A stretch of 64,000 bases of DNA from a virus (Duplodnaviria > Caudoviricetes): positions 160,001-224,000 of IMG/VR virus record IMGVR_UViG_3300037721_000031; one strand, written 5' to 3'. A model generated the notes under the pieces. That model searched no databases. It saw only the letters and a list, made by a program, of their open reading frames with translations, and was not told the DNA's origin. The position numbers and the translations under genes are program-made. Below, piece by piece: positions 1 through 10,227 of this stretch (its first letter is position 1; the number at the start of each line of letters is the position of its first letter).

Positions 1-361
1 TATCTCCACTATACGTAGTTAGAAAATCTTTCATCGTCATTACTACTGGCAGATAATTACCTCGAGTACCTGACTGAACCAGTAGTTTCTGCAGACTCTC
101 TTGCGATGGTTTATTTACAGTAATAAAAAGTGCTTCTCGTTTCAGAGGAAGTGCTCTATTCACCAACGTCATTGTCTTTTCACTCTGACGAATACCACCA
201 AGAAGGATTGTCCGCCACTCACGATAAAGCGTAGGGCTTGCCGTGACAAAACCAGACATTACGCGTCTTATGCTTGTTTCTCTACTATTGATATATGTCT
301 CGAGTGTATCAAGGAGTGAACCCCAATTGATACTGGATTGATGTATGGTCGTATTAGCCAT
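1..361 (-). CDS. Hypothetical protein, truncated by window edge
   Basis: My translation from ATG at 361 (MANTTIHQSSINWG...) stays open to base 1; not in the supplied track because no stop is in view. Confidence 0.75.
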   Translation of the reverse strand, partial: MANTTIHQSSINWGSLLDTLETYINSRETSIRRVMSGFVTASPTLYREWRTILLGGIRQSEKTMTLVNRALPLKREALFITVNKPSQESLQKLLVQSGTRGNYLPVVMTMKDFLTTYSGD

Positions 362-393
362 TATTCAAATGCCTTTTTACTAGTTAAAAAAAC

Positions 394-485
394 TGGCGGA
401 TATGGTAGGATTCGAACCTACGGAACCCATTGCTGGGTTCGACGGTTTAGCAAACCGTTGCGTTAAGCCTCTTTGCCACATATCC
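394..485 (-). tRNA. tRNA-Ser(GCT)
   Basis: Cloverleaf; anticodon arm ACGGT-TTGCTAA-ACCGT; long variable arm; GGTTCGAATCC T-arm; encoded CCA. Confidence 0.95.
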
Positions 486-489
486 AATT

Positions 490-576
490 TGGCTCCACAG
501 GCTGGATTCGAACCAGCAAGACCTTTCGGAAGACGCGTTAACAGCGCGTTGCAGTACCAGTTATGCTTACTGTGGA
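490..576 (-). tRNA. tRNA-Asn(GTT) with extended variable arm
   Basis: Acceptor TCCACAG/CTGTGGA, G73, CCA; anticodon arm ACGCG-CTGTTAA-CGCGT; 15-nt variable region. Confidence 0.9.
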
Positions 577-581
577 ATTGT

Positions 582-1094
582 TCAAATCAAATTATAAGAC
601 TTAACCCATTTACGGACTGCATTATCCGATACACCATACTTCTCACCAAGCTTGACCATTGAAGTGGTTTCAATTTCTAGTGCTAAGACTTCTTTCGAAG
701 GACGTTCGGCTTTCCGACGACCAAAGTCTTGACATGGTCGAGAACAGTACTTCTCTGTATGATCAACCGGCTTATCACATGTTGCGCAACGAATACAACC
801 TAGTGCTTTTCTCTCAGCATATTCGGGCTTTGGAGTGATTATATTTTTGCTGAGCCACGTATGCAGCTTCGCATGCATCGGTCCAGAAAGAACTAGGAGA
901 TTATCTGGAGAATTATTTGTTTTATTCTCATCGAGGTGATGAACTTCTTCACCTTCTTTAAAAGGTCTGTCAAGTAACTCTTCAGCGATCAGTCGATGTT
1001 CGTACTGATAATCTTCGACAGATGCAGTTTCCAATTTTTCAGGATCAACTACAGCCACATAACCATTTTTGATTATTCTTTGTTTCTTAGCCAT
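582..1094 (-). CDS. HNH homing endonuclease with Zn-ribbon and C-terminal HTH
   Basis: YEHR...VHHLDENKTNNSPDNL HNH motif, CxxC pairs; start moved to MAKKQ because the longer ORF runs through two tRNA genes. Confidence 0.9.
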   Translation of the reverse strand: MAKKQRIIKNGYVAVVDPEKLETASVEDYQYEHRLIAEELLDRPFKEGEEVHHLDENKTNNSPDNLLVLSGPMHAKLHTWLSKNIITPKPEYAERKALGCIRCATCDKPVDHTEKYCSRPCQDFGRRKAERPSKEVLALEIETTSMVKLGEKYGVSDNAVRKWVKSYNLI

Positions 1095-1114
1095 AAAATT
1101 TTCGACCTTCTTAT

Positions 1115-1190
1115 TGGTCCGCCCGGAGGGATTCAAACCCCCGACCCGCTGAGTAGAAATCAGCTGCTCTACCAACTGAGCTACCGGGGA
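1115..1190 (-). pseudogene. Degenerate tRNA (anticodon TCT) on an Asn/Lys-type body
   Basis: D and T arms recognisable, but the acceptor has two mismatches, T-loop TTTGAAT and anticodon loop TTTCTAC. Confidence 0.7.
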
Positions 1191-1217
1191 ATAATTCGTT
1201 GTTATCAATATAACAAT

Positions 1218-1294
1218 TGGTTTCTCGACTTGGGCTCGAACCAAGGACCTACAGCTTAGAAGGCTGTTGCTCTATCCAACTGAGCTATCGAGAA
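1218..1294 (-). tRNA. tRNA-Arg(TCT)
   Basis: Acceptor TTCTCGA/TCGAGAA; anticodon arm ACAGC-CTTCTAA-GCTGT; CCA. Confidence 0.95.
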
Positions 1295-1674
1295 ATGTTC
1301 GTCATCTTCTTAATAGCTTTAAGAAGAAGTTTTAAATAGGGTGTTTCAATAGATATATTTGGCTTTGAGAACATTACTTGACCATCTGGAAAATCAAGTC
1401 GTAGCTCTGGTCTGTAGATTACCTGAATGAAACCAAGATCACTACATTTAGATTGTCCTCCTCTTTTGAAGAACTTTCTATAGTCAGATAATCTATTCCA
1501 TCCAAATACGAAATTGGCTATTTTAAGTGCCTCAAGTACTTCATCAGGAAGACTCATCGCCTTCGCCATTTTATCTGGATCATAATGCGGTGTTAGGTAA
1601 CGGACACATACTTGGTCACCATGAAAAGGTCCATTACCTTTCTCATCTTCAAGACGATATACTTTTCTAGGCAT
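1285..1674 (-). CDS. Hypothetical phage protein (VYRLE..G.GP N-terminus)
   Basis: Likely start MPRKV follows the upstream stop; its own stop lies inside tRNA-Arg. Confidence 0.7.
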   Translation of the reverse strand: MPRKVYRLEDEKGNGPFHGDQVCVRYLTPHYDPDKMAKAMSLPDEVLEALKIANFVFGWNRLSDYRKFFKRGGQSKCSDLGFIQVIYRPELRLDFPDGQVMFSKPNISIETPYLKLLLKAIKKMTNISR

Positions 1675-1676
1675 GA

Positions 1677-2108
1677 TTAACAGTATGTCTGTACGCCAGC
1701 AACTAAAATTACTTGTTTCCCGTATACTGCAGTACTGTGCCAACCTAAACGTTTGGCTATTGCTGCAAACATGTAGGTATCAAGGTACTTGCTTGTTATG
1801 TCTGGGGATTGAGTGTGACGCAAGAAATACGCGATCTCGTCGTCCCAGTTATTAGTGATGTTAGTATCGAGACGGTCCTCCCGAGCACAACTCACTGAAA
1901 AAGATTTTATTTGAGACATCAGTGTATTAATAACATTCGGCTGAATGATCACTGAAGGCTGATTTGGTGTTCTATCGTTAGGATCTGGAAACTCGAATCC
2001 GCAAGCTGATACATTACGAGCTGCTCTTAGAAAATAGGCGATAAACGCACCAGTTTCTGGATGATAGAAGTCATCGACATTGCTATTACCGTCTTTACTG
2101 TTCATCAA
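1677..2108 (-). CDS. Hypothetical protein
   Basis: 143-aa codirectional ORF. Confidence 0.65.
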   Translation of the reverse strand: MMNSKDGNSNVDDFYHPETGAFIAYFLRAARNVSACGFEFPDPNDRTPNQPSVIIQPNVINTLMSQIKSFSVSCAREDRLDTNITNNWDDEIAYFLRHTQSPDITSKYLDTYMFAAIAKRLGWHSTAVYGKQVILVAGVQTYC

Positions 2109-2256
2109 ATTACTCCATATTGCTCTAAGTCATATCACTGCTTTAGAGCGGGCTGAGAAAAAAAGAAAACACAACACATTGTGAATACATGAGATTTTGG
2201 CCTCATGTATTCATTACATGCATCTATTTAAGTGCATGTAAAGGTTTAACAAATAA

Positions 2257-2343
2257 TGGTGCCCGGAACCGGGATCGAACCGGTATGACCGTAAGGTCGA
2301 GGGATTTTAAGTCCCTTGCGTCTACCTATTTCGCCACCCGGGC
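2257..2343 (-). tRNA. tRNA-Leu(TAA)
   Basis: Anticodon arm AGGGA-CTTAAAA-TCCCT, long variable arm, CCA; no intron. Confidence 0.95.
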
Positions 2344-2384
2344 ATTCTGAAATCAATTTAACAAATTATGCAACTGTCTCAATA

Positions 2385-2460
2385 TGGTGCCCCCGGTCTG
2401 AATCGAACAGACGACCTTCCGCTTACAAAGCGGGTGCTCTACCAACTGAGCTACGAGGGC
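2385..2460 (-). tRNA. tRNA-Thr(TGT)
   Basis: Canonical cloverleaf; loop TTTGTAA; CCA. Confidence 0.95.
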
Positions 2461-2482
2461 ATTTATTATACCATACTTAAAC

Positions 2483-2806
2483 TGGAACCGATCGCCTGAA
2501 TCGAACAGACTTCTATCACCTAACGTTTATCCCAACTGTTAACTGTGTAACTCACTGCTTCTGCGTCATTGGACTGCCTGTGCTATCTCTTAGCACAGGC
2601 TTCTCTTAGAGAATTTATCCAATTGTCTAGATAGCGGAGATTACTACATTACCAGCATCAATACCCATAGACGTTTATTCACATCCGAAGATGAACGTTC
2701 AGCCAGGGCGGGCTAGGACTAGCTAAATGCTATCTGCTCCTAAGTGGGCAGACTCCTATTGATCAGACTACATACAGTGATTGCTCTACCAATGAGCTAG
2801 ATCGGC
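2483..2806 (-). ncRNA. tRNA-scaffolded RNA with 257-nt insert replacing the anticodon loop
   Basis: Acceptor GCCGATC/GATCGGT, D-arm GCTC-ATTGGTA-GAGC, stem ATCAC/GTGAT, T-arm GTCTG-TTCGATT-CAGGC, CCA; insert 2520-2776 is hairpin-rich. Confidence 0.85.
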
Positions 2807-2830
2807 TTACTACTTTCAAACAACCGTTAC

Positions 2831-3794
2831 CGTACCACTATAGTTTTCACTACCGAGGATGACTTTTCTCAAATGCGACTACAGTCATCTTGGCTGTGCT
2901 AGCCATTTCTTTGGAGACTTCAACGATCTTCTATTAGGAAGACCTCCATCTATATAAATCCAAATACTCTCGTTTGTGGTCTGGACTATGCCTTCATCCA
3001 TTGTTACTCGGCGGCAATCATATCGGCATTGTCACTCCATTTTACTGGGGATATTTCCAATATAGCTATCCACCCTAGACAAAGCACATGTTGTTCATTC
3101 CAACAACACCCGCTCTTTAAGCCTACACTTGGATGATCTCCATCTAGTCTCTACACCTTCAAGAATAATCTACGTACCTTCACAGGTATGTGTATATCAT
3201 TACTAATTCAGATACTAAAGATACCGAGAGTCGAACTCGGACCATTCCACAGCGGAGTCTACCGCTTGACCTATATCTCTAGTACAGTGCTGTGTTCACC
3301 TTCTGAATTAATACATTCAATACATCAATAGCCGGAGGAGCCCTACTCCATGGACGAATCATAGGTTTCGAAGCTACTATCGTCTGTTTATTGTCATACC
3401 TGCCGGCATGACTCAACACTCTACGTTCTTTTAATCGCTACTGAAAAATTACTCAAGCTTGGCTCGGCGTTGACATGGTAAACTTATTACATAAATGGAT
3501 CATCACTTTTGGATGTTTCCATTTTGTTAGGTCCAAGTCTACTTTAGTGTTCGCCGAATTTGAAGATATTCACCTAACAGGGTATAGGATTCTCACCTAG
3601 TACGCTTAGAGTTTGACCTCAATCGTTTCCTGCTATTTTACCGTCTCTCGATTGCATCGTTTCGTACATAGCTTCTTTTTGAAGGAAGCTACATATATCC
3701 CCAACGCATTTTTCGGTGGTGCTCATGTTTCTGCTGGATAGTCATGACTCGTGCTCACATAAGTATTCGCGAATCACTAATACCCATTCAGCAT
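2831..3794 (-). ncRNA. Group I intron (IB-like, ORF-less, large peripheral inserts)
   Basis: P4 UCGGCG/CGCCGA, P3 AUCUUCA/UGGAGAU, P7 GACUA/UAGUC, P8 CAUCCA/UGGAUG, P9.0 ACCAC/GUGGU, terminal G at 2831; core is clear, 5' splice site is inferred. Confidence 0.85.
3215..3282 (-). ncRNA. tRNA-like domain embedded in intron L6
   Basis: 9-bp acceptor-like helix, U8-A9, D-arm GGTC-AAGCGGTA-GACT, perfect T-arm CCGAG-TTCGACT-CTCGG, stunted anticodon arm. Confidence 0.75.
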
Positions 3795-3818
3795 AAGACG
3801 GTTATTTTACTAACTAAA

Positions 3819-4217
3819 CTAGATGGACATTATGAGTACATGTCCATCATCACCAACAATCATGTCTTCAACTTCTTCATGGTCGAAAGGAATGTCTCTG
3901 TAGCGCTCTCGAGCTTCAGCATGTTCCGCTCCACCATTTACTTTCTCTTGTTTTCGTCTCAGAGCTCTGGCTTCATAAGCATGCAAAGCTTGCTTTAAAT
4001 GCCAAATCGCATCTTTAGTTTCGTCACACGGAATCAATCCATCAAGGTAGACAGACCTATCCAAGAGTGCTCGAATGACTTCCTGAGTATTTGTTCCTTG
4101 GTATTCGACATCATGCCTCACATGCCGGCTACTTCTTTTACAGAATTTCAATTCCTGATGACCTGGTGTCCCAAGATTATCAAGATGGTAAATGTGACCT
4201 GCATCAATTATTTTCAT
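3819..4217 (-). CDS. Tad1-like (Tad1/Acb2 fold) anti-defence sponge candidate
   Basis: H.Y...KF.K...G....E...L.DR......P..E...A..H...AL......R...V.G pattern matches Tad1 as I recall it. Confidence 0.65.
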   Translation of the reverse strand: MKIIDAGHIYHLDNLGTPGHQELKFCKRSSRHVRHDVEYQGTNTQEVIRALLDRSVYLDGLIPCDETKDAIWHLKQALHAYEARALRRKQEKVNGGAEHAEARERYRDIPFDHEEVEDMIVGDDGHVLIMSI

Positions 4218-4234
4218 TCAATTTCTCATTAATA

Positions 4235-4490
4235 GCTTGACTCCCTATAGTCCACCAGCCGCATCTTATCCGGGTAATGGACTATAGGTTGCCCTCGTTA
4301 GACTCGTCAGTCTACAGAGAAACAGCTTCCACTCAAAATGGCTGGCAACCAAATCAAGTGACGTACAGTTTAGAAAGTGCCAACTCTCCACTTTAGATGG
4401 TTTTTGCCATCGCTTCCTCCCAGAGCCACGAGTGTCACTGTTAGTCCTCGCAGCTTGGATCATTTATACGAGTATTCCTACTCGTTTCGC
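4235..4490 (-). ncRNA. Putative structured ncRNA or 5' leader
   Basis: Several nested helices, incl. CCTATAGTCCA/TGGACTATAGG, GGTTGCC/GGCAACC, GTGAC/GTCAC, TAGACT/AGTCTA. Confidence 0.55.
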
Positions 4491-4525
4491 TCATTTATTT
4501 TTAAACCGTTGAGCTCATCAGTAAG

Positions 4526-4852
4526 TTACGGTTTCGGATGCTTTACAGCTTCCTCATATAGCTTTGCACTCTTATCAAAAAGCCAAGCAGCTTGATGAAA
4601 TCGGTGTGCTGCTTCATTAACAAGATCCTGAGCTTCCTTTGTGGACTTGTCAATTCCCTTAAGAGAAGTCATTATCTTGTCGGCTTTCTCCTTATTTTCT
4701 TTTGCCAAAGCATATGCTTGGTCAGCTTCTTCAAGGTGATTCCTGTCGTCGTTCATTTCCTGAACTTGCGAGTCTGTGTAATCTTGCTGCATTTGAGGTT
4801 CTGTTATAGTCGTGTATACATTAGTGAGGACCTTTGCATTAGGCATCTTCAT
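4526..4852 (-). CDS. Hypothetical coiled-coil protein
   Basis: 108-aa codirectional ORF, helical and charged. Confidence 0.7.
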   Translation of the reverse strand: MKMPNAKVLTNVYTTITEPQMQQDYTDSQVQEMNDDRNHLEEADQAYALAKENKEKADKIMTSLKGIDKSTKEAQDLVNEAAHRFHQAAWLFDKSAKLYEEAVKHPKP

Positions 4853-4925
4853 ACTTAATCCAGATTGAATGTTTGAATAAGAAAAGAGAATAAGTGTTGA
4901 TGTGATCTCTACTTATTCTATAAAC

Positions 4926-5004
4926 TGGTAGGCCGGGTGAGATTCGAACTCACTATCGCTGGCTTATGAGGCCAGTGCTTATACCAGGCTTATGCTTCCG
5001 GCCC
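4926..5004 (-). tRNA. tRNA(CAT), Met or Ile2
   Basis: Anticodon arm CTGGC-CTCATAA-GCCAG; acceptor GGGCCGG/CCGGCCT with C4-G69 and C5-G68 favours Ile2; atypical A8 and D-arm. Confidence 0.85.
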
Positions 5005-5400
5005 ATTTTTATTTCTATCTCTACTGTATTGTTTCATCCAGACACTCTTTGCTTCTTTGCAAAGGTCACATTTACAGTAGCGATATTCTGTAAGAGTCCC
5101 GTGTTTTGGAATTCTTTTGCTTCTGAACAACTCGTCTGCTTTTTCTCTATTTTGTGGTTTTGTCAGAATCTGCAGATTGTTAATATCGTCGTTTGTTTTA
5201 TCATCGTCTTTGTGATCGACTTCAAGACCATCTGGTACGATATATCCGAGTTTAACAGACATCAAATAACGAGCATATGAAATTGTTGTACTGGTTTCCC
5301 CAGTATTGTAGAGAATAACATTTCTTCTATTCTCTGGGTTTACAACAATGTACCCACATTTCCATTTCTCCTTGAATGGAGATTCTAGTTCTATTTTCAT
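4990..5400 (-). CDS. HNH homing endonuclease
   Basis: VDHKDDDKTNDDINNLQIL motif; stop codon lies inside tRNA(CAT). Confidence 0.9.
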   Translation of the reverse strand: MKIELESPFKEKWKCGYIVVNPENRRNVILYNTGETSTTISYARYLMSVKLGYIVPDGLEVDHKDDDKTNDDINNLQILTKPQNREKADELFRSKRIPKHGTLTEYRYCKCDLCKEAKSVWMKQYSRDRNKNGPEA

Positions 5401-5415
5401 GTTCTTTTTTTTTTT

Positions 5416-5449
5416 AAGCCGCTGCTCTAACCATCTGAGCTAACGGCCC
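5416..5449 (-). pseudogene. 5' half of a tRNA gene, broken at the anticodon loop
   Basis: GGGCCGT-TA-GCTC-AGATGGTTA-GAGC-A-GCGGC-TT, then an A11 run and the HNH start. Confidence 0.85.
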
Positions 5450-5455
5450 TAGAAA

Positions 5456-5716
5456 CTATTGCGGAATCACTACTGTGAAGTTTTCACCACAGTATCCACC
5501 TATCAAATGCTTTCCTTTGGAGCGACCAAATCCAGGGTCGGTTCCTTTACAATAATCCTTGTAACTTCCCTTGTACAACGTCATCGTGTTATCACCACCA
5601 TAGTCTGGATCGGACCACACAAAGTTACCAAGAGCTGTTTCAATGAAGAAGTGCATTCCCCACATGTAGGTGAAGTCACCGACTGCGTTAGCAATTGCTT
5701 CTTTACTAATAGCCAT
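5456..5716 (-). CDS. Hypothetical phage protein
   Basis: 86-aa ORF with SD GGAG. Confidence 0.75.
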   Translation of the reverse strand: MAISKEAIANAVGDFTYMWGMHFFIETALGNFVWSDPDYGGDNTMTLYKGSYKDYCKGTDPGFGRSKGKHLIGGYCGENFTVVIPQ

Positions 5717-5735
5717 GTTGATCTCCTAAAGTTTG

Positions 5736-5825
5736 TGGAGGAAGTGGTGAGATTCGAACTCACGGAGCCATCTCTGACCCAACAGTTTTCAAGACTGTCT
5801 CATTAAACCACTCTGACACACTTCC
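5736..5825 (-). tRNA. tRNA-Ser(TGA)
   Basis: Anticodon arm ACAGT-CTTGAAA-ACTGT, long variable arm, CCA. Confidence 0.95.
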
Positions 5826-5836
5826 AAAAATAAAAC

Positions 5837-6854
5837 TGGATTCGATGATAAAAGAAATAGTGACGGCCACGACACTGAACAATCGTCAGCGCTGCCGTCT
5901 CTACCCATAACAGGCAGCTTTACTTCCACTAAGACCAACTATGGTCTTAGTGGAAGTGGATTGTCGATCACATTCCCAATTGTAGTCAGGAATTATCAGC
6001 TCTGGCCAGATCCCTCCGGACAGCATTTGACATCATGTCTTGTGGACTAGACATCAAATAAAAGGCCATACACACAGGTCCCAGAATACTAACCTAAATC
6101 TCAGAGAACTTCTGATGAGGCTACCAACCTCAGCACTCTCACGAGTGTCAGACTCTTGCAAGATCTAATAGCTAAATATTCCTGGAGTCAAGATGATGGA
6201 AGAATATGATTAAAGTCATACCCGTATTCGTCTGTGGATGGCGAAACTGTTTACATCTATCGGATAAAAGACTACGTACAGACTCATTACTGTTACTCGG
6301 CTGTAGTATTACCGGCAACGTGTTTATCACTACGCTACCGATTCTATAAGCCTACATATTTGCCTGTACGTAGTAAAAACTGTTGAAAACACAATCTCAG
6401 TATCACGAGTAAATCTCGCCGTCTCGAAACGGCAAGACTGGTTGTTCGAGCAACCATCCAATATAAAGCTTCAGCAATATACCGAACAACTCATGATCTA
6501 GAGGCTGCATTCTCGAACCATTAGTTTAGTGGCTTCAACACTTGCGACTTTCGTCCAAGCTCCACCCTGCATCACCTAGGTTCAGACTTACAACTTGGCA
6601 GAAACAAGGAGTACCACCCCCTACGAATCTACCCATAGTGTTTCGATTAGTTGGTGCTAATCATCAGACCATATACCGTATTGAGAGTCTCAGTGTGTGT
6701 CTCCTGGACACACAACTCTCATAGTACATGACTCTTTAACACTTAAGATCAAATGACTCTCGGAAATACTCTCTGAGTCGTCTAACAAATTATAATGAGT
6801 TCGAATATTTTCTTACACATTTCAATCAAGAACAGCATACTTCTACACTATTCC
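5837..6854 (-). ncRNA. Large (~1 kb) structured ncRNA ending in CCA
   Basis: No minus-strand ORF of 60 aa or more; over 12 hand-paired helices; 5' GGAATAGTG pairs with 3' CACTATTTC; ends TCGAATCCA-GTTTT. Confidence 0.75.
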
Positions 6855-6860
6855 ACTTAT

Positions 6861-6876
6861 GTCATATGTGTTTGAA
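6861..6876 (-). promoter_or_regulatory. Putative phage promoter TCARACACA-TATNAC
   Basis: TCAAACACATATGAC; same motif upstream of genes at ~37575, 43305 and 52415; resembles the phiKZ early TATTAC core. Confidence 0.55.
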
Positions 6877-6887
6877 ATTTCTTTGAT

Positions 6888-7031
6888 TCAAGAAATAAGA
6901 TACAGATAACCAGCGAATGCTGTTAGACAAACAATCTTGACATAATGTTTACGGAGGATACCGTTAGCAGCCACCAATGTCAATCCACAGATATTTTTAC
7001 CAACCATAATTACAGTCTTAGTCAAACTCAT
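6888..7031 (-). CDS. Small hydrophobic protein (47 aa)
   Basis: My translation MSLTKTVIMVGKNICGLTLV...; below the ORF track cutoff. Confidence 0.5.
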   Translation of the reverse strand: MSLTKTVIMVGKNICGLTLVAANGILRKHYVKIVCLTAFAGYLYLIS

Positions 7032-7088
7032 TTCGTTGTGCATATGCATCCTTAAGAGTACTGCAGTAGATTACTAGCTATTACTTCA

Positions 7089-7412
7089 TCAAAGAGTTTT
7101 AAGTCGTTGCTTGACTTCTTGATACATTATACTCACACATGCAGAAATTGACCCCTCATAATCTGAAAGTTTATCCCTGAGCCAGGTGTTTAGTCCTGGA
7201 CTAAACTTTTGTTCTTCTCGAAGGTTATCAAATTCTTGCACAACCTTCATTCCAACTTTATGAAATTTCTCACAAACATCTTCGGCATGCGCAATCAGCA
7301 TTTCTTGTATATCGAAGCCGTCATACCTTTGAGCCTCTTTTATTGCTGAAAATGCAACTTTTTGCACATCAATTGCATGTCGTACCAGCTTCTTCAACTT
7401 CTTCATTCCCAT
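7089..7412 (-). CDS. Hypothetical protein
   Basis: Codirectional ORF. Confidence 0.7.
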   Translation of the reverse strand: MGMKKLKKLVRHAIDVQKVAFSAIKEAQRYDGFDIQEMLIAHAEDVCEKFHKVGMKVVQEFDNLREEQKFSPGLNTWLRDKLSDYEGSISACVSIMYQEVKQRLKTL

Positions 7413-9513: not shown

Positions 9514-10227
9514 TCAGTGTTCGTAACTGATTGGTATCACTTCAAATTCTTCATCATCGTCAACATACTCGTCAGCACGATGAAGTTCAGACTCGTCAGC
9601 GCCAAGAGTTTCAATGAGTTCAGCGTCTGCAGATATAGCGCTTAAGTTAAGCATGATGCTGATAAGTTGATACTTATTATTAGAATTATAAAACAGTATA
9701 ATCAACTCACCATCGTTAGTTTCATGCGTATCAAAAAAGACGTAACTGTGCTGCTGAGTACTGTTAATTACTCCGATGATCGCATAAATGAAATCAGAAT
9801 TTTGACACTCATGTCTTCGAGCATGTTCATACATTACTTCTTGAGGATCGCTGTCTAAACGCTCATATCTTTCGAACTCTAAAGGCTTATCTAAAAAAGT
9901 AACAGACATGAAAATTCTGTTGTGCGGAGAATTCTCATTATCGTCACGACAACGTCGAATGTCACTAGAGAAGAAAGCCTGTTCTCCAACATTGTTAGGA
10001 GTTAATTCTCGTCGACTGTCACCATCAACACATAGCCAATCAGTCATGTGTATTGAACAATTACGAAAAAAACTAACACCTGTTTGAATAATTGGGATGG
10101 CTTCTCTAGTGCATGCATTTGGTATAAAACTTAATAGCTCATCCAGTCTGTCATTCTTGACATCTTTAGAGTTCAGAGCGTAATCAAGCATATCTGAAAG
10201 ATTCATGTAAACTCCATGTCGTAGCAT
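9514..10227 (-). CDS. Hypothetical protein with acidic tail
   Basis: 237-aa codirectional ORF. Confidence 0.7.
   Translation of the reverse strand: MLRHGVYMNLSDMLDYALNSKDVKNDRLDELLSFIPNACTREAIPIIQTGVSFFRNCSIHMTDWLCVDGDSRRELTPNNVGEQAFFSSDIRRCRDDNENSPHNRIFMSVTFLDKPLEFERYERLDSDPQEVMYEHARRHECQNSDFIYAIIGVINSTQQHSYVFFDTHETNDGELIILFYNSNNKYQLISIMLNLSAISADAELIETLGADESELHRADEYVDDDEEFEVIPISYEH

Follow-up and report, generated by a model that had tools for sequence, protein, structure and literature searches.

Among described RNA structures, the closest counterpart of the element reported here is P5abc, a three-way-junction helix extension that combines a GNRA tetraloop arm with an A-rich element arm and is optional among related RNAs. 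The element, which we name domain D, is a predicted three-way junction of about 126 nucleotides (nt) found in a 64,000-nt stretch of phage DNA (the window; bases 160001-224000 of a 266,566-base-pair (bp) IMG/VR virus record), where one copy caps helix P8 of a group I intron-like RNA and a truncated copy caps a helix of a second RNA of about 1 kilobase (kb). For the Tetrahymena group I ribozyme, PMC3439887 describes P5abc as an independently folding peripheral tertiary domain. Like P5abc, D is a three-way junction at the tip of a helix; all of its arms covary, hairpin 2 has a GNRA tip (in six of the seven full copies) and hairpin 1 an A-rich loop. Unlike P5abc, it is mounted on P8, on a hairpin following P7 or on the 1-kb RNA rather than on P5; it shows no sequence similarity to P5abc, it is common to different RNA families, and its tertiary contacts are putative.

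Three further groups of elements invite comparison. GNRA receptors (the 11-nt receptor and the CU:AG and CC:GG minor-groove receptors) recur in several large RNA families as portable modules of tertiary structure. D resembles such tetraloop-receptor systems in its GNRA tip and in an invariant C-G/U-A step in its stem, but it is a 126-nt homologous domain and not a convergent short motif. Mitochondrial GC clusters, double-hairpin elements and bacterial miniature inverted-repeat transposable elements (MITEs) are short foldable units that occupy variable sites, including loops of structured RNAs, and are polymorphic for presence or absence. D is likewise foldable, variable in site and polymorphic in this way; in contrast to these insertions, it has no DNA terminal inverted repeat or target-site duplication, is present in one or two copies per genome and shows RNA covariation throughout. 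Finally, the GOLLD and ROOL families of Rfam share with the D-bearing RNAs the character of big, ornate non-coding RNAs in phage transfer RNA (tRNA) clusters with a variable periphery, but neither the host RNAs nor D match Rfam.

We consider it probable (roughly 60%) that D is an autonomous, modular, peripheral three-way junction that is exchanged between helix tips and acts as a P5abc-like clamp.

From two repeated words to domain D

The first 7,000 positions of the window (1-7000, minus strand, to which all RNA coordinates below refer) form an island with tRNA genes, short open reading frames (ORFs), an HNH gene and long ORF-free stretches. Two words, UGUAGGCUUA and GCCGAGUAACA, occur there twice, exactly and collinearly, at 3127-3118/3012-3002 and at 6356-6347/6301-6291; the spacing between the halves is 105 nt in the 3002-3127 copy and 45 nt in the 6291-6356 copy, just as an earlier note on this DNA had recorded. 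No third copy was detected across the whole 266,566-bp genome with up to 3 substitutions permitted. When one ~1-kb RNA was compared with the other, 2.8% of 500 dinucleotide shuffles produced collinear exact matches totalling at least 21 nt; when the matches were extended without gaps, the chain scored 29, a value equalled by 1 of 400 shuffles. The extended similarity enters the supposed inserts, reaching 36 nt past the first half and 16 nt ahead of the second.

Relatives were obtained through protein searches of metagenome assemblies with three small island ORFs (3819-4217, 5456-5716 and 7089-7412). Close homologs of these ORFs lie on metagenome contigs that bear the island: L017/L018, L019/L020, L023 (the same as L049), L047/L048 and L052. 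The plus strand of the relatives' loci (L017-L020, L023, L047/L048 and L052) is equivalent to the minus strand of the window. BLAST aligned the intron copy (window 3128-3002) with L023 9438-9563, which belongs to the 1-kb RNA of that locus, at 78.9% identity over 128 nt (E 1.5e-23). This L023 RNA holds both words exactly, 104 nt apart, within a full D of 125 nt.

A covariance model (CM), R1, was built on a trimmed alignment of five full copies. RNAalifold returned no structure from the untrimmed alignment and a three-way junction from the trimmed one. R1 finds eight copies (Table 1), from five phage lineages, and gives no other match in the remainder of the genome or across 440 kb of related DNA. 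The earlier note had proposed a covariance model of the module and a search with it; the model recovers copies in homologs of both RNAs. In the eight-row alignment 88.5% of cells are paired, compared with 33-47% in controls with slid partners. Double changes are found at 18 of the 40 pairs; shuffles gave 9.1 +/- 2.0, and none of 500 reached the observed value.

The word match by itself is modestly beyond chance, and homology makes the shared module certain. Exact-word chaining reaches the observed sum in 2.8% of shuffles, which is what two short words repeated by chance could claim for themselves; that explanation, refuted by the BLAST match to a relative's copy, by CM matches of 54-139 bits and by the covariation, is hardly credible. 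As judged from the alignments, the repeated halves are the ends of one homologous, predicted three-way-junction domain of about 126 nt, and D is a new RNA domain for which a working covariance model exists. The shared module of the earlier note thus stands, while its picture of a bipartite unit around unrelated inserts gives way to the whole junction. To speak of "different inserts" was misleading, because the 45-nt insert is the remainder of the homologous domain after a net deletion of 59 nt.

That deletion can be followed in the truncated copy of the window's 1-kb RNA. Against the 1-kb copy of L023, it is identical at 37 of the first 38 nt and at 21 of the last 27. Its 66 nt compare with 125 nt for the copies of L023 and L052; the deletion has taken the 3' strand of hairpin 1 together with most of hairpin 2, and the inner 3' strand of hairpin 2, which was retained, now pairs with the 5' strand of hairpin 1. 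This copy is a deletion derivative, remodelled into what is predicted to be a single long hairpin.

Wider searches set the range over which D was sought. Megablast and blastn comparison of window 2700-7000 with GenBank phages yielded tRNA and HNH matches only. No related loci were found in IMG/VR by way of the neighbouring ORFs 3819-4217 and 9514-10227, and IMG/VR pattern scans for the motif or the interior of D gave 0 matches. A metagenome scan for GUAGGCUUA followed by a 95-125-nt gap and GCCGAGUAAC gave 16 matches, none D-like by eye or by CM (best E ~1), and a scan of genome contigs gave a single chance match, in a metagenome-assembled genome of Eubacteriales, with similarity confined to the 22-nt probe. 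The nearest cultured relatives by RecJ are Xanthomonas jumbo phages, at ~50% protein identity; in the RecJ-based relatives (L006-L008 and the Xanthomonas phages RTH11 and LucasX) the RNAs were not found by blastn or by CM R1. Distant homologs of a 132-amino-acid (aa) protein (L021, L022, L054-L060) lie in different gene neighbourhoods and have no D. Rfam contains no family matching D or the 1-kb RNA, and neither these RNAs nor D were found described in searches of the literature.

Fold and covariation of D

In the consensus fold, a closing stem of 8 bp with a bulged A and a G.A mismatch opens into a junction with strands of 0-5 nt, from which two hairpins extend (Table 1). Hairpin 2 has an internal loop and, in the consensus, a GNRA tetraloop at its tip. 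The tip of the window's hairpin 2 (3045-3040) is a GUAAAA hexaloop, and the other six full copies have a GNRA loop (GCAA, GUAA or GAAA). Both the GNRA tip and the junction bases are conserved across the types of D.

The register of the closing stem differs from that first proposed. The earlier note had paired UGU with ACA, and GGC with GCC around an A/GAGUA loop. In L017, UGU/ACA reads CGU/ACG, and this double change from U-A to C-G upholds the pairing. GGC/GCC fares otherwise: it shows no double change and has five unpaired cells, all in diverged copies and precisely in those with a change on one of the two sides, and it is replaced by GCUU/GAGU and by pairing of GCC with the 5' strand of hairpin 2, for which there are double changes. 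The A after UGU is bulged, a bulge that is lost in L019, and the first G of GGC faces the A after GAGU; this G.A mismatch becomes U-A in L047, G-C in L019 and a symmetric A.A in the P8 copy of L023. Within GCUU/GAGU, none of the eight copies departs from the C-G, U-A and U.G pairs; the G.U becomes A-U in L019. It is these changes in L047, L019 and the L023 P8 copy that fix the register of the stem.

The bases released from the older pairing belong to the two hairpins. The last A of the first half starts hairpin 1, with an A-U to G-C change in two copies. GCC of the second half (3012-3010) ends hairpin 2 by pairing with GGU (3074-3072); it reads AUC in the P8 copy of L023 and GUC in that of L047, with the partner G changed to A, which makes two G-C to A-U double changes. 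Constrained folding of the intron copy places the comparative register 6.4 kcal/mol below the one proposed earlier. Only the truncated window copy, from which the GGU partner has been lost, favours GGC/GCC, by 2.8 kcal/mol. The two G.U pairs and the G.A in the stem argue for selection on an RNA rather than on a DNA inverted repeat.

The 19 nt of the type-A stem do not vary among five copies whose identity is otherwise 74-80%. Such constancy is what might be expected if D were a shared binding platform by which a single protein or other trans-acting partner, of phage or host origin, recognised different RNAs of the island, for example for processing, stabilisation or localisation. One and the same domain on two otherwise unrelated RNAs would fit that idea, as would the purine-rich 2x1 loop of the stem and its G.U pairs, which would be typical protein-contact features. 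However, the special features of the stem are lost in three P8 copies (L019, L023 and L047), D is absent from the 1-kb RNA of L017, L047 and L048, and Rfam offers no match to a known protein-binding RNA family. We regard a binding platform as possible but unlikely.

Known small motifs were compared with the repeated halves and the junction. The sequence of the 11-nt GAAA tetraloop receptor (CCUAAG...UAUGG, with its A platform) is absent from both halves. A kink-turn was rejected on two grounds: the non-bulged strand next to GGC is UA, not GA, and GAGU is Watson-Crick or wobble paired by covariation. A sarcin-ricin or loop E motif (AGUA/GAA) lacks the GAA on the opposite strand, and the A-G-U of GAGU is paired. 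A UAA/GAN reading of the motif was also considered and rejected. For the hammerhead and other small three-way-junction ribozymes, there is no CUGANGA/GAAA core and no Rfam match.

Table 1. Copies of D, their predicted parts and the helices that carry them; coordinates are those of the window.
Feature	Host site	Coordinates	Strand	Evidence
Window copy of D, full length, three-way junction	caps P8	3002..3127 (126 nt)	-	CM R1 121.8 bits, consensus fold
Closing stem, 5' strand (UGU, bulged A, G facing A, GCUU); most of the first repeated half	P8	3119..3127	-	columns 4-6/152-154, 9-12/147-150
Closing stem, 3' strand (GAGU, A, ACA); last 8 nt of the second repeated half	P8	3002..3009	-	consensus fold
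Hairpin 1, A-rich terminal loop GGAAUGAAC (UGAAAUAAG-like in relatives)	P8	3079..3118	-	helices 2-4: 13 pairs, 6 double-changed
Hairpin 2	P8	3010..3075	-	helices 5-6: 18 pairs, 9 double-changed
P7, 5' strand GACUA, pairs with UAGUC 2988-2984		3145..3149	-	RF00028 alignment
P8, 5' strand, pairs with 3000-2994		3130..3136	-	Rfam RF00028 alignment
P8, 3' strand		2994..3000	-	pairs with 3130-3136
Window truncated copy of D, closing stem and hairpin 1 kept	1-kb RNA	6291..6356 (66 nt)	-	CM R1 17.1 bits
Host helix of 1-kb RNA, 5' strand, D at tip	1-kb RNA	6362..6374	-	minimum free energy (MFE) fold, z -5.4; compensatory changes in L017, L023, L047
Host helix of 1-kb RNA, 3' strand	1-kb RNA	6271..6283	-	MFE fold, covariation
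L017 copy of D	hairpin downstream of P7			CM R1 139 bits
L023 copy of D	P8			CM R1 125 bits
L023 copy of D	1-kb RNA			CM R1 121 bits
L019 copy of D	P8			CM R1 111 bits
L052 copy of D	1-kb RNA			CM R1 111 bits
L047 copy of D	P8			CM R1 54 bits

Host helices, movement and neighbouring features

In the RNA that hosts the P8 copies, alignment to RF00028, the group I intron family, locates P7, P3', P8 and J8/7, with scores of 16.6 bits (2961-3243) and 22.8 bits (3173-3694) that are below the gathering threshold of 50; this RNA has no evident host gene. P7 covaries, reading GACUA/UAGUC in the window, GACUG/CAGUC in L019 and L017, and GAUCG/CGAUC in L023 and L047. P8 shows a C-G to U-A double change in L023/L047, and L019 has a different yet paired stem. 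This covariation in relatives bears out the earlier placement of D on P8 of the window; its placement on an 11-13-bp helix of the 1-kb RNA is confirmed in the same way, as that helix also covaries.

The earlier note further saw a likeness to P7 in the ends of the 1-kb helix (ACUA...UAGUC) and suggested that the large RNA derives in part from a domesticated group I intron, which would make D a relic of P8. That D caps P8 in the other RNA would agree with such an origin. However, the helix is an ordinary uninterrupted stem with variable end bases (GCUACG in L023, ACCACA in L017), so the likeness to P7 is not conserved; RF00028 finds nothing in 5826-7100 up to E 10; the similarity between the RNAs is confined to D and ends at its edges; and L017 has D outside P8. 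Partial descent of the 1-kb RNA from an intron is therefore highly improbable.

Three sites accommodate D: P8 (window, L019, L023 and L047), the post-P7 hairpin (L017) and the helix tip of the 1-kb RNA (window, L023 and L052). In L017, as seen in two independent samples, D lies in the loop of the hairpin following P7' and not on P8; the window counterpart of this site is a plain UAAU loop at about 2950-2925. Similarity between the two host RNAs begins and ends with the closing stem; the sequences beyond it are not related. Between the P8 sites of L023 and L047, flanks of 34+34 nt are identical and the D copies are just 56% identical. At the 1-kb site of L017, L047 and L048, an unrelated insert of 115-125 nt sits on the same covarying helix in place of D. 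With three insertion sites and replacement as a cassette, D behaves as the movable unit that had been suspected, and its cassette-like distribution between two RNA families is unusual.

Other parts of the island also vary. The insert that replaces D, 'domain X' (L017:7665-7800, and in L047 and L048; the site of window 6361-6284), is conserved between L017 and L047 and forms a second alternative cassette. The P8 of L017 (11540-11660) holds a different insert of ~75 nt instead of D, and the order of RNA modules in the L017 island is shuffled relative to the window. L023 lacks ~200 nt (window 6264-6066) that are present in other relatives. The core of the 1-kb RNA (window 6382-6672) is 91-100% identical in the window, L023 and L052, and the adjacent L052 protein is only 52% identical; such conservation of the core indicates either a very strong constraint or a recent exchange of the RNA gene.

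Hairpins 1 and 2 group the copies discordantly: in the P8 copy of the window, hairpin 2 is like the 1-kb type (87-91%) and hairpin 1 is like that of the L047 P8 copy (86%). This discordance indicates recombination among D copies, which may also be part of the reason why the stems in the window are exactly identical. An internal repeat, AGAUGGAG(A/G)UC(A/U)UCC, is found at P3'/P8 and at the post-P7 hairpin (window 2925-2960 vs 3130-3150). It is a plausible recombination substrate for movement of D between those two sites, as in L017.

Presence/absence polymorphism at each of three sites, replacement by unrelated inserts, a decaying truncated copy in the window and evolution faster than that of the host cores would all be expected of a selfish or neutral structured mobile insertion, tolerated at helix tips only and folded merely to spare the host RNA. 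However, the flanks of the eight copies show no target-site duplication, and D lacks MITE-type terminal inverted repeats: the ends of D are not complementary as DNA because the stem has G.U and G.A, so that the terminal 'repeat' works solely as RNA. A MITE was rejected as a class for these same reasons. Each genome has one or two copies, with none elsewhere in the 266 kb of the window's record, and conservation of the GNRA tip and junction bases across types also speaks against a mere passenger. We think a selfish insert rather doubtful.

Several neighbouring features were noted in the island. A 53-aa ORF at 6888-7049 is conserved, every relative having it as a called gene of 47-51 aa; it lies just upstream of the 1-kb RNA, so the RNA probably starts below about 6888. 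A tRNA 5' fragment (acceptor arm, tRNA D arm, start of the anticodon stem and a run of A) at 5405-5445 lies directly upstream of the HNH ORF (4990-5400), which is followed by a complete tRNA with a CAU anticodon at 4929-5004 (51 bits with Rfam, not called by ARAGORN). The arrangement suggests that insertion of the endonuclease disrupted or duplicated a tRNA gene. An ORF-free stretch at 4230-4530, 74-78% identical in L017 and L019, holds a hammerhead-core-like CUGACGAG and has no Rfam match.

Possible roles and significance

Comparison of the copies demonstrates the homology, boundaries, predicted fold, covariation, three insertion sites, mosaicism and truncation of D; for its role, we favour by analogy a structural clamp or docking element. 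D occurs exclusively at helix tips, in two large structured RNAs that are unrelated to each other, within a single clade of uncultivated jumbo phages, and DNA recombination, through cassette exchange and gene conversion, would move it between sites and copies. As a clamp, it would fold alone and steady the host RNA through tertiary contacts of its GNRA loop, A-rich loop and non-canonical stem, with the stem's invariant C-G, U-A and U.G pairs as the docking surface.

Several observations weigh against this role. No receptor covariation emerged from the seven full copies available. At every site some lineage does without D; the domain is truncated in the window, and at 80-86% identity it evolves faster than the core of the 1-kb RNA (91-100%). 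The alignment behind the pair counts was fitted to the model, although the key changes are nonetheless visible by eye, and all relatives stem from a few metagenomes. Given its faster evolution, dispensability and truncation, D may be neutral or selfish. The partner-binding platform and the tolerated selfish insert are serious rivals of the clamp.

We also entertain, as a speculation that we think quite unlikely, that D is a mobile RNA 'tag' moved between RNA genes, through which unrelated RNAs of the island would share one interaction. If true, that interaction might, for instance, be with a common protein, with a shared processing or localisation route in a nucleus-forming phage, or a docking between the two RNAs, and functional domain shuffling between non-coding RNA families would have its first natural example in D.

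The analysis corrects the secondary structure of the motif and disposes of a decayed intron as the origin of the 1-kb RNA. That large RNAs have modular peripheral domains is textbook knowledge; one homologous domain shared by different RNA families, and by different helices, within a set of close genomes is seldom observed. Here, the intermediates can be seen as well: D complete, D truncated and D supplanted by a different cassette. The island may thus serve as a natural system for studying how large RNAs gain and lose structural parts.

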